A stretch of DNA of 63,634 nt, the filler included, from Stramenopiles sp. TOSAG23-6 (lineage: Eukaryota): the NCBI GenBank assembly GCA_900128565.1. It is 10 parts of 10 records of this genome, joined end to end, with 100 filler letters (N's around TTAATTAATTAA, not from the genome) between each part and the next. Parts side by side here need not be neighbours in the genome. Positions count along the whole stretch, not along the records: positions 38,394 to 45,957 come from LT636549.1; 9 more parts are not named here. One strand, given 5' to 3'. The translations under genes and the position numbers were made by a program. The notes beneath the pieces were generated by a model. It was given only the letters and a program-made list of their open reading frames with translations, was not told where the DNA came from and did not search any database. Below are positions 37,402-41,637 of this stretch, piece after piece. Numbering within the stretch: position 1 is the stretch's first letter; every line of letters begins with the position of its first letter.

Positions 37402-37659
37402 TGTCTTTTAGGCTTAAAAAATGGAAACAATGCTCGTTTGTTTTTTCTCATTTGAAAATTTGAATTCAGAATTTTTTTCATTATTTTTGAAACAGTTTTG
37501 TTCCTCGATAAATAATGACCCACCCACGACCGTTAGAAATGAAGCAACGTTTAAACTGATACCCAGAATTGCAAGCCTAATATTGCACTGTATCTTTTTT
37601 AAGTCGCCGGAGTTCCAGAAATAGCACAAGGAATATATGTTGATATACCTAAAGACAAG

Positions 37660-38293
37660 TTGAATGGCATGAAGTTACCCAAATTACAAATATCGGAGGT
37701 GAAAAAGCACACCAAAGAACCATTGACAAAGCGATGGGGACAACAAGTACTGACAAAGAGACATTCTATAGAGTTAGCAAAACAGAGCGCTAATATTGGT
37801 GAAAAAGCTGCCAGTGACGTTCTAGTAAAAGCTATAAGTTCAGGAAAAGCAAGCGCAACAATAGGTGCAAGTGCTGCTGCTGAACAATTTTTTGCAAATG
37901 ATAGTGTATACGTTGAAGGCGTGAAAGAAATAGATGAAACTAAACCCGTAGAGATTGCTGAAGAAGAATTCACAAAACAAAATACAATACCTCTAGAACA
38001 AGCTATAGAGAATATTGAATTTTCAAAAGACATTGAAGAGACCAAAGTACAGATCACCAAAGAACCATTGACAAAGCGATGGGGACAACAAGTACTGACA
38101 AAGAGACATTCTATAGAGTTAGCAAAACAGAGCGCTAATATTGGTGAAAAAGCTGCCAGTGACGTTCTAGTAAAAGCTATAAGTTCAGGAAAAGCAAGCG
38201 CAACAATAGGTGCAAGTGCTGCTGCTGAACAATTTTTTGCAAATGATAGTGTATACGTTGAAGGCGTGAAAGAAATAGATGAAACTAAACCCG
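37660..38293 (+). CDS. Repeat protein fragment (345-bp period; 37710-37948 repeated at 38055-38293), 3'-truncated
   Basis: TKEPLTKRWGQQVL...EIDETKP repeated exactly. Confidence 0.55.
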
Positions 38294-38492
38294 NNNNNNN
38301 NNNNNNNNNNNNNNNNNNNNNNNNNNNNNNNNNNNNNTTAATTAATTAANNNNNNNNNNNNNNNNNNNNNNNNNNNNNNNNNNNNNNNNNNNNGTTTTAT
38401 TTTTTTTTCAATTTTGAATTTATTTTCGTACGAAATTTTGTACCTAACAAATTTTTTTAAATTTTTTGTTGAAATATTTTTTCAAAATAATT

Positions 38493-39211: not shown

Positions 39212-39675
39212 TTTTATTTATTTTATGAAAAATATTTTTAAAAAAATGAGTAATTAAATTACATGATTTTATTTTATGAAAATTTTTTCAAAATGTTTTT
39301 TGTTTTTTTCTGTGTTGGGTACAAAATTAGATAGACAACAAAATCATATGGTACATGTAGTTGATGTGAAAAGTATTTTTTTGACACATCCAACATTTCA
39401 TTATAACTAAATCATATATAAAACTGAAATATAGAATCAGCGATGGGAGCAGGTTTGTAGGTTTGTAGTAATTTTAGCTGCCAAATATAGTGAAGGATTT
39501 CGTGTTGAGAGAACGAAGAATTTTGAAATTTTCTAAAATTTGAATTTTTTGACCGGATAGAAAAGAATCGTTGTGCTTTCACATTTATTTAATTCCAAAT
39601 AGGATTATCGTAATTTACAATATAAAACAAAATTCTACTCGAAACAAAATAAACAACACCAGCTGCTTGAGTAAC

Positions 39676-41527
39676 ATGGATGTGAAACCAATTGTATTCG
39701 TGCCAATGTGTGCAGATCTGCTTCACGATGGTCATATCAAGTTGTTAAACGTAGGAAGAAAGTTTGGATCTATTACAGTTCTATTAATGACCGACGCTGC
39801 AATGCTTACATACAAACGTACGCCCACAATGTCGTATGAGCAAAGATATACTTTAATACGTTCTTTACGCCAAGTTGATAATGTTTTACCATGTAATGGT
39901 CCACATACGTACTCATCAATGGTAACACAGTATAAACCTTTGTTTTTCCTCCACGGAGATGACTGGAAAAATGGTCCTCAATCGGCACCCAGAGAAGCAG
40001 TAATAAAAGCTTGTTCCGTATATGGAGGTAAGGTGATTGAACCACCATATCATAAAGGTGTTTCTAGCACATCTCTACAAAAATCCATTAAAAGCACGAT
40101 ATATGAACAAAAGTGTCTCGGAGTGATTCTTCGTTCTGCTTTAAACGATTTAAAACGAACGCCAGAACATGTCACTTTTGAACATGTACGTTTTCAAAAT
40201 TGAATTATTAATTTTTTTTCATACGAAATTTCGTACCTAACGATTTTTTTCCATTAAAAAAAAAATCACAATACATGGTATTGGCACAAGTATAATACAT
40301 CGAATAATATCAGGACATGAATTTGATGAAGAATGTCAATCTGCAATGATTCGATCAATTACATCGTTGTATCCAATTGACAAGAAAGAACTGGTTATGA
40401 ATCATGATACAAGTTATTGTGGTATCTGGCATATGTTAGCCAAGACAACTCAAAAAAGTGGCCGAGTGATTGAGCGAACGAATGAAAATGGTATGAGTTC
40501 ACCATATTATCGATATATGGACACAGCAGTATCATCTCTTGCACCCTTCAAACCTGAATTAATTGAAACCTTAATGATGGTTGAGAATAATGATGCTTAT
40601 CATCCAAATATAGTAATGAATAAAGGACATTTACTTGCACAGGTGACATTCTTTATAGGTCCTGTAAACTTTTATTATACTATTAGAGGTAAAAGATTAT
40701 GTGTCCCAATGAATAGTGGGGATTCGTGTTTAATTACTCCATTTATACCACATTCATTTGCTTCTCGAGATCCATCAAAATATTCTGCAATTGTAGCTGT
40801 AACATTCAGTGGAAATGTTCGAGGTTTAATTGCAGATTTAATGCATCTTGATAAAAAAGTTTTGCTAGATGTTGCTGGAGATGCAAGAAAATCAAAAGAT
40901 GTACAATTACGCCGAATCCAAAGATATGCTGATTTGCGTGGAATCAGTGATATGAAAAAGCTTATGAGTGATTTGAAGAATAATCCTCATGAGGTTGCCA
41001 AAAAATTAAAAGTGTCTGTAGATTTAATAAGTGAAAGACCACTTAGTATTTCTGATGAAGTAATCTGTGAACATAAAAACACTAATCCGATCCCAGTTTT
41101 GCAAAAATCAAATGAAAAACATTGTTTAGCTTGCTCCAAAATAATGCCCGAAGTCGGAGGATATGAGTGGATACTACGCAGTGCTGATACATCGTGCAGT
41201 CCATTCTTCAATTATATCTATAACCATGGAACTAAAAGTGTTAAACTACGAAATTGCAATTCAGGTGTAGATGTTATTGTTGCACCTGGTGATAGTTTGA
41301 TTTTGAAACCGTTCATCACAGTTGTATTTGCCCCTTGTGAATCATTTGAACCTAATCCTATCCATAACAGAAATAAATCAGAAGCAAGTACTATGTCGCA
41401 GTCATATGCTAATTTGCTCGTTGTTAAAGTTGGAGGGTGTGTCCAGCGATCAACTCTAGATGAAATATCTACATTTGATGACGCGGGAAGGAAACGAATG
41501 TTATCACAAAAGAGTCGATGGTGGTAA
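39676..41527 (+). CDS. mpnS: Cytidylyltransferase - methylphosphonate synthase (MpnS/HEPD-family) fusion, ~586 aa (exons 39676-40185, 40277-41527)
   Basis: N-terminal MCADLLHDGH..MTD..YKR..HGDDW..PY.KGVSST; then LNDLKR HTH, YYRYMDTA, PFKPE, NKGHLLAQ..FIGPVNFYY, MNSGDSCLITPFIPH. Confidence 0.85.
40186..40276 (+). mobile_element. Family intron, GT...AT, 91 nt
   Basis: CAT|GTACGT...CAATACAT|GGT joins the two ORFs inside the HTH (TFEH|GIGTS). Confidence 0.85.
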
Positions 41528-41637
41528 TAAAATATGAAAAAGACAATAATAGTTTGAGATATATGACTACAAACTACAATGACAATGTAGACACCACATC
41601 ATATTTATTTATCTAAATATAAAGATTTATATATCAT

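Follow-up and report, generated by a model that had tools for sequence, protein, structure and literature searches.

Methylphosphonate is the favoured precursor of the methane formed in oxygenated sea water, and we know of no methylphosphonate producer for which nucleotidyl activation directly after or alongside the step of the methylphosphonate synthase MpnS has been established. According to the accessible text of Rice et al. 2019 (PMC6697681), the cytidylyltransferase (CyTase) domain of Fom1 makes the cytidine monophosphate (CMP) conjugate of hydroxyethylphosphonate, CMP-HEP, and about 60% of bacterial phosphoenolpyruvate (PEP) mutases are fused to a PF01467 or PF12804 domain; the title of reference 28 in the same paper presents the CMP tag of fosfomycin synthesis as transient. 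Here we describe a gene at positions 39676-41527 (+ strand) of a 63,634-nt stretch of 10 joined parts from the assembly of Stramenopiles sp. TOSAG23-6 (this whole stretch is called the window below), in the part that comes from LT636549.1 (38,394-45,957). The gene is transcribed, a 91-nt intron without GT-AG ends is removed, and the frame is then continuous from a Fom1-type CyTase into a complete MpnS-type Fe(II) oxygenase.

An earlier note, made from the sequence of the window alone, did not know such a fusion from characterised systems. Our reading of the literature agrees: neither a CyTase-MpnS fusion nor a eukaryotic MpnS came up in any paper that we found, with supplements and subscription journals outside the search. 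The string 'methylphosph' has 0 occurrences in Rice et al. 2019 (PMC6697681), and 'eukaryot' has 0 occurrences in the available portion of Lockwood et al. [quoted passage not shown] The portion of PMC8931226 available, on methylphosphonate synthesis genes, deals with bacterial and archaeal genomes only, and that of a 2026 giant-virus catalogue (PMC13524828) mentions, without detail, phosphonate gene clusters in Imitervirales and Mirusviricota. Among uncharacterised sequences (metagenome, transcriptome and virus-like), the fusion architecture itself is common, and automatic annotation exists for some of them. The gene is an expressed fusion of two known enzyme families; the arrangement and the host domain are new, and the function proposed below is well motivated.

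The structure of the gene was assembled from the DNA, from RNA contigs and from alignments to homologues, including the intronless fused homologue P0004:

39603-39675, + strand: 5' untranslated region, at least this long; contig X7 record 25 of the RNA library matches the DNA colinearly over 39603-39793
39676-40098, + strand: exon 1, part 1, the Fom1-type CyTase domain (residues 1-141), from the PF01467 and 5x3d matches
39724-39735, + strand: HDGH motif of the CyTase, inside exon 1
40099-40185, + strand: second part of exon 1, encoding the linker helix and the beginning of the MpnS module (residues 142-170), from the alignment to MpnS and P0004
40186-40276, + strand: intron of 91 nt, skipped in polyA RNA contigs
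40277-41527, + strand: exon 2, the remaining MpnS module (residues 171-586) and the TAA stop, from the 6b9s and 6b9r matches
41528-41585, + strand: 3' untranslated region, at least this long; contig X4 record 16 of the RNA library extends over 41377-41585

The ATG at 39676 opens a frame reading MDVKPIVFVPMCADLLHDGH..., and the frame of the DNA has no in-frame ATG between the upstream stop (before 39553) and this position. The four motifs quoted in the earlier note all fall in this frame, far beyond chance: HDGH at residues 17-20, LMTD..YKR.P at 37-50, HGDDW at 93-97 and GVSST at 128-132. The note had also drawn the CyTase from 39676 to 40100 and placed it in frame with the helix-turn-helix (HTH)/cupin region. 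Its end point is sound, since the domain ends near 40098; the exon, however, continues to 40185 and carries the start of the MpnS module (about the first 25 residues), including the lysine of NDLKR. The shared frame holds once the 91-nt intron is removed, but not in the DNA as it stands, where a one-base shift separates the two open frames and the second occupies 40241-41527.

We placed the intron at 40186-40276 because intronless fused homologues read uninterrupted across the junction, ...RTPEHVTFEH running straight on as GIGTSIIHRIISG.... Exactly these 91 nt are skipped in polyA metatranscriptome contigs: in X4 by one contig, whose shorter side is 23 nt, and in X7 by record 26 (206 nt), in which 82 and 124 nt flank the gap with 0 mismatches. 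Joining the exons gives a coding sequence of 1761 nt for 586 residues, in frame and with a single stop at its end. The fusion does not depend on the splice, because exon 1 already encodes the first helix of MpnS, including K160. We regard the single fused polypeptide claimed in the earlier note as real because one exon encodes both the CyTase and the helix that begins MpnS, the splice seen in RNA keeps the frame, and orthologous open reading frames (ORFs) elsewhere are uninterrupted. RNA contig coverage of the gene is partial. The contigs that cross the exon junction start at 40100-40102; others cover the CyTase at 39603-39793 (X7) and 39930-40098 (X6), and 39804-39887, for example, is uncovered.

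By sequence comparison, the N-terminal domain is a Fom1-type CyTase, closer to Fom1 than to phosphate-ester cytidylyltransferases. It matches the Pfam model CTP_transf_like (PF01467) with an E-value of 1e-11 (45.6 bits against a cut-off of 21). As the earlier note had proposed, Fom1 is its best relative among solved structures: the Fom1 CyTase domain 5x3d aligns over residues 4-140 with an E-value of 9.7e-35 and 123.1 bits, and 62 of 137 positions are identical in a hand count of the alignment. Relatives share the N-terminal start (e.g., MPTVLLPMCAD). A search with the CyTase domain against 1.84 billion representatives returned 2536 proteins at E ≤ 0.001, 20 of them at E ≤ 1e-30. The best full-length matches were MpnS fusions (49-54% identity), followed at 41-47% by proteins of 350-460 residues that we take, judging by protein length only, to be putative fusions to PEP mutase (PepM). 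The representative search also returned proteins of 297-363 residues with two CyTase stretches (P0204, P0207 and P0216).

The frame of exon 2 matches MpnS of Nitrosopumilus maritimus (6b9s) with an E-value of 1.1e-38 over residues 13-237 plus the C-terminal cupin, and relatives ending in ..KWW cover 100% of the exon 2 query. No model in Pfam or NCBIfam matched this module. We take H148, Q152 and H190 of MpnS to be its 2-His-1-Gln iron ligands and K28, R102, Y110 and N145 to be the residues that bind the phosphonate of 2-hydroxyethylphosphonate (2-HEP); the residue numbers agree with the PDB chains. The second-shell pair F162/I184 reportedly fixes the Gln and decides between MpnS and the related hydroxyethylphosphonate dioxygenase (HEPD). 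The protist protein carries the aligned residues as follows:

40153-40155, + strand: K160, aligned with Lys28 of N. maritimus MpnS
40475-40477, + strand: R237, aligned with MpnS R102
40514-40516, + strand: Y250, aligned with MpnS Y110
40619-40621, + strand: N285, aligned with MpnS N145
40628-40630, + strand: H288, aligned with MpnS H148
40640-40642, + strand: Q292, aligned with MpnS Q152
40670-40672, + strand: F302, aligned with MpnS F162 (Y163 in Streptomyces albus HEPD)
40733-40735, + strand: I323, aligned with MpnS I184 (G184 in S. albus HEPD)
40751-40753, + strand: H329, aligned with MpnS H190

K160 was aligned through P0004, which reads ALNDLKRTPE against ILNDIKRRPE from residue 23 of MpnS; ALNDLKRT stands at residues 155-162 of the 586-residue protein. 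The segments around the iron site read GHLLAQ and PFIPH here and GHFMHQ and PFTPH in MpnS. In an alignment of 32 fused proteins, the iron-site and phosphonate-binder columns are invariant, and the Phe and Ile columns are at least 90% conserved. The structure model available is that of P0004 (45-47% identical to exon 2) rather than of the 586-residue protein itself. It has a mean predicted local distance difference test (pLDDT) score of 89.1 and a predicted template modelling (TM) score, pTM, of 0.76, and a single helix (142-170) bridges its CyTase and MpnS parts. The model superposes on MpnS 6b9t with a TM-score of 0.83-0.86 on the target over 454 columns, and on the HEP-CMP-bound Fom1 CyTase 5x3d with a TM-score of 0.96 and a root-mean-square deviation of 1.1 Å.

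The earlier note had suggested an architecture search, and this recovered the CyTase-MpnS fusion in 40 of 63 relatives, among them a transcript of Telonema and a giant-virus-like contig. The 63 proteins came from the exon 2 search; PF01467 was precomputed in 37, and the 40 CyTase matches were obtained by phmmer (3 of them partial). Identity to exon 2 is 38-47% for the fused forms and 25-32% for the free-standing ones. P0001 is apparently free-standing; its 90% cluster, however, includes a 614-residue member with a CyTase 55% identical to that of exon 1, and some proteins scored as MpnS alone are therefore truncated gene models. The Telonema subtile transcriptome (EukProt) contributes one fused protein. 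In a quick IQ-TREE tree of 54 MpnS parts (11 short or partial rows left out, midpoint root only), 40 fused proteins and 4 scored as alone stand opposite 10 free-standing ones, and the dividing branch has an SH-aLRT support of 100. P0007 (722 residues) and its cluster have a tandem pair of CyTase domains preceding the MpnS module.

We also compared domain architectures across 134 fetched loci, a set in which some loci are near-duplicates or overlap on one contig; an MpnS-like match is present in 107. A CyTase followed by MpnS in one ORF occurs in 23 of the 107, all from metagenome or IMG/VR contigs, and the reverse order in none of the 107. Free-standing MpnS accompanies a CyTase-PepM ORF at 49 loci, and MpnS stands alone at 35. 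No PF01467-MpnS fusion was found in the 49 loci from prokaryote species genomes, where the usual order is mpnS, CyTase-pepM and then ppd, the gene for phosphonopyruvate decarboxylase (Ppd). The MpnS part is 28-32% identical to exon 2 in prokaryote-type loci and 38-55% in fused forms. Three loci (L044:1-1860, L047:44-2449 and L068:18-2624) fuse a PF12804 (MobA-like) nucleotidyltransferase to an MpnS-like module, and because these exist too, the pairing of a nucleotidyltransferase with MpnS arose at least twice. At L020:1-3002, a CyTase-PepM gene lies head to head with a CyTase-MpnS gene, so that one locus holds two CyTase copies with different partners. A Saccharibacteria metagenome-assembled genome (L004:5707-10521) encodes an iron-type alcohol dehydrogenase, a CyTase-PepM protein (453 residues) and an MpnS-like protein (410 residues) consecutively; the last of these has a very long branch in the tree.

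Genes around the fused relatives hint at the predicted substrate supply and acceptor. At L014:1-21692, a nucleotide-sugar transporter, Ppd, PepM, an NAD-binding dehydrogenase and CyTase-MpnS are encoded together, flanked by a 2058-residue GT10/GT49/MGAT2/LicD/GH38 protein, a Stealth plus galactosyltransferase protein, a Cas1p-like acyltransferase and two transporters. We regard loci of this type (also L013, L015, L018, L089 and L090, with L010 and L011 similar) as a complete candidate methylphosphonate-glycan cluster. Their contigs are intronless and 183-200 kb long; L014 itself comes from a 200-kb contig with 41-49% guanine plus cytosine (GC). L010 carries a gene like that for GDP-mannose dehydratase and a GT8/GT15/sulfatase-like protein. 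Two contigs of the L014 type and the L026 contig are listed as viral in IMG/VR, and the L014-type contigs may derive from a giant virus, given these siblings, or from a small eukaryote; named relatives of their MFS_5 gene are all distant, the nearest being from Thecamonas at 42%. The contig of L026 and L091 (23% GC) encodes a 581-residue CyTase-MpnS fusion at L026:9372-11117, flanked by a topoisomerase IA, a YqaJ-like recombinase, a 2-oxoglutarate-Fe(II) oxygenase and the RNA polymerase subunit Rpb2, and it looks like part of a giant virus genome.

From these observations, we consider it likely that the two-exon nuclear gene of a marine protist encodes one 586-residue bifunctional enzyme that makes methylphosphonate and then CMP-methylphosphonate for glycans. 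Free 2-HEP, supplied by a PEP mutase, a phosphonopyruvate decarboxylase and a reductase whose genes would lie in other parts of the genome, would bind to the 2-His-1-Gln iron site of the C-terminal module. With O2, the oxygenase module would cleave it into methylphosphonate and a one-carbon product, as does MpnS of N. maritimus. The N-terminal module would combine methylphosphonate with cytidine triphosphate to give CMP-methylphosphonate and pyrophosphate, by the chemistry that Fom1 applies to 2-HEP, and a LicD-, Stealth- or sulfatase-type transferase encoded outside the window would move the methylphosphonyl group onto a glycan. A glycan is proposed as the target because the relatives' loci (L014 type and L010) carry glycosyltransferase, LicD, Stealth and sugar-nucleotide genes. 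Methylphosphonate synthesis, CMP activation, the order of the two steps and the acceptor are predicted, and they fit the catalytic residues and the gene neighbourhoods of the relatives. For the predicted use of CTP and a phosphonate by the CyTase, its association with phosphonate genes in genomes gives indirect support.

Several points weigh against this proposal. The only characterised close relative of the CyTase uses 2-HEP, not methylphosphonate, and the CyTase substrate here is a predicted one, as are the enzyme activities of the whole fused clade. A long branch of 1.56 changes per column separates that clade from the free-standing MpnS-like proteins, and P0004 shares only about 27% identity with the solved MpnS. 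The roles given to F162/I184 and to the phosphonate binders are those reportedly described by Born et al. in 2017. The 47 ORFs scanned in the window include no PepM, Ppd, recognisable phosphonoacetaldehyde reductase, LicD or Stealth protein. No single contig among the polyA metatranscriptome contigs links the CyTase domain proper to MpnS, so a shorter MpnS-only transcript is possible, and the RNA evidence (runs X4 and X7) all comes from one study.

The main rival is the reversed order known from Fom1, which we judge unlikely. The CyTase would act first and make CMP-2-HEP; the oxygenase would then act on the conjugate, giving CMP-methylphosphonate with no free methylphosphonate, or CMP-HEP itself would go to glycans. 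Fom1, the closest characterised CyTase, acts on 2-HEP and was crystallised with HEP-CMP, and the distance between the fused clade and free-standing MpnS leaves room for a changed substrate. On the other hand, the residues aligned with K28, R102, Y110 and N145 are invariant in the 32 fused proteins, which fits binding of free 2-HEP. Prokaryote-type loci, moreover, have the CyTase on PepM and keep MpnS free-standing, so MpnS generally needs no tethered CyTase. The order from methylphosphonate to CMP-methylphosphonate is the one that we prefer.

It is improbable that the oxygenase module is an HEPD, which would yield hydroxymethylphosphonate and formate. The S. albus enzyme 6b9r is nearly equal to MpnS as a match in sequence (E 9.5e-37 against 1.1e-38 for the exon 2 frame) and in fold (TM 0.83-0.84 for the P0004 model), and it likewise has a Gln ligand. 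The deciding residues differ, however: where S. albus HEPD has Tyr163/Gly184 (VNYYF and VWGLPF in 6b9r), the protist protein has Phe and Ile in VNFYY and CLITPF, like the Phe162/Ile184 of MpnS in VNFYY and MYITPF. We take the ligand of PhpD-type HEPD to be Glu and the Phe/Ile pair to be what decides the outcome. The protist protein has Gln where the PhpD type has Glu, and the fold match of the model to PhpD-type HEPD is poorer (TM 0.72-0.74). A HEPD would show Glu, or Gln with Tyr163/Gly184; the combination here is Gln with Phe/Ile.

Still less probable is an ordinary phosphate-ester cytidylyltransferase, acting on glycerol-3-phosphate, phosphoethanolamine, phosphocholine or heptose-1-phosphate, with no phosphonate role for the N-terminal domain. 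Such enzymes do match weakly: ethanolamine-phosphate cytidylyltransferase 3elb at E 9.7e-10 (41.7 bits) and TagD 1coz at E 2.9e-9 (40.2 bits). These scores of about 40 bits compare with 123 for Fom1, and the NCBIfam equivalogs for TagD (TIGR01518, 50.7 bits) and RfaE domain II (TIGR02199, 57.2 bits) fall far under their cut-offs of 165.4 and 181.5 bits; the general domain model TIGR00125 alone passes (41.8 against 27.7 bits). The best full-length representatives, as described above, are MpnS fusions and then proteins of PepM-fusion length, which speaks against this reading.

The genes around the fusion in the window indicate its host. Those recognisable among the 47 scanned ORFs are all ordinary eukaryotic ones: a POLO box kinase, Med21, DDRGK, RabGAP-TBC, an EML-like WD40 protein and a PPR protein. 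Neighbouring genes are most like stramenopile genes. For the polo kinase ORF, all readable organism names in the best 120 matches are stramenopile (Triparma at 53% identity and several diatoms). An independent DNA run contains colinear pieces at 95-99% identity. The host is a marine protist, probably a stramenopile. Elsewhere in the window, the open frame 37603-38349 contains a segment of about 75 residues (KEPLTKRWGQQVL...VKEIDETKP) twice and ends in a run of N; an assembly gap may have broken or collapsed a tandem repeat here.

The intron (40186-40276) is 21% GC and reads GTACGT...ATACAT, with no AG anywhere within it and without the GT-AG ends of canonical spliceosomal introns. Both junctions carry a copy of ACATG, so the exact ends can shift by as much as 5 nt. 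The RNA joint allows six placements (AC..AT, CA..TA, AT..AC, TG..CA, GT..AT and TA..TG), none of them GT-AG. The RNA fold of the intron with its flanks has a z-score of -1.19, and 24 of 200 shuffles fold as well; there is therefore no sign of pairing that would bring the ends together. The core of the intron, ACGAAATTTCGTACCTAACGA, occurs in 22 copies across the window, in + and - orientation, where 0 are expected. Besides 40186-40276 there are 21 sites, e.g., 16772, 36420, 43060, 57424 and 58314. Of these 22 copies, 12 begin GTAYGTTT, 11 of the 12 with a T before it, and 14 end ..AAYAYAT, so the family ends are GT..AT (or a 1-nt shift of it), not GT-AG. We rejected AT-AC (U12-type) ends as a family rule: the RNA joint allows them here, but other copies lack AT before GTAYG. 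The copy at 40186-40276 is precisely excised in RNA. In a seawater DNA run, the core of this copy reaches a depth of about 33,000. The closest published likeness that we found is the non-canonical introner elements of Amoebophrya, as described in the accessible part of PMC7789003. An artefact, whether from a chimeric assembly, from bacterial contamination or from two genes that are in fact separate, is hardly credible: the scaffold has runs of N and no RNA contig spans the whole gene, but CyTase and MpnS start share one uninterrupted exon, the intron family recurs 22 times across the window in both orientations, the neighbours (POLO box, Med21, DDRGK and RabGAP-TBC) are eukaryotic, and the independent DNA run has colinear pieces at 95-99% identity.

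The proposed bifunctional enzyme bears on the sources of marine methylphosphonate. By Rosetta-stone logic, the fusion argues that nucleotidyl activation comes directly after the MpnS step or together with it, and an expressed nuclear MpnS gene in a protist suggests an additional, unsurveyed source of methylphosphonate. The Telonema transcript and the virus-like contigs with PepM, Ppd and glycan-modifying enzymes point in the same direction. More tentatively, and with chances that we put somewhat short of even, giant viruses and protists such as Telonema and this stramenopile-like plankter would be uncounted methylphosphonate producers, whose dedicated two-headed enzyme hands CMP-methylphosphonate on to glycan-decorating enzymes of the Golgi type. 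Archaea and bacteria would then not be the only origin of methylphosphonate esters in marine dissolved organic matter and of the methane that these esters yield; eukaryotes and infected cells would contribute a part. The fused protein also offers a single recombinant target for testing the activation step.

Compared with known systems, the gene product resembles HEPD of S. albus (6b9r) and of the PhpD type (3g7d) in fold and in its predicted substrate, 2-HEP, and differs from the S. albus enzyme in having Phe/Ile in place of Tyr163/Gly184. PntC/LicC-type (PF12804) CyTases fused to Ppm, as far as the available text of PMC6697681 describes them, likewise serve nucleotidyl activation for cell-surface tailoring with LicD-like transferases near; they have another nucleotidyltransferase fold and 2-aminoethylphosphonate as characterised substrate, whereas the domain here is PF01467. 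Prokaryote-type mpnS clusters (Pelagibacteraceae, Saccharibacteria, Nanoarchaeota and others) contain the same parts, an MpnS-like protein, a PF01467 CyTase, PepM and usually Ppd, but with the CyTase on PepM and MpnS alone. Fom1 of Streptomyces wedmorensis (CyTase-PEP mutase) is the best N-terminal match and also joins a CyTase to another enzyme of a phosphonate pathway; its partner is PEP mutase rather than MpnS, and its CMP tag is transient, to go by the cited title, whereas relatives of the protist fusion point to transfer onto glycans. MpnS of N. maritimus (6b9s/6b9t) shares the HTH-like and double cupin fold, by full-length superposition of the P0004 model, together with the 2-His-1-Gln site, the Phe/Ile pair, the residues aligned with the phosphonate binders and the C-terminal ..W ending. 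Fused P0004 is only about 27% identical to it, the fused proteins form a separate clade, and the protist gene is nuclear, has an intron and carries an N-terminal CyTase that is joined, in the P0004 model, by a continuous helix.

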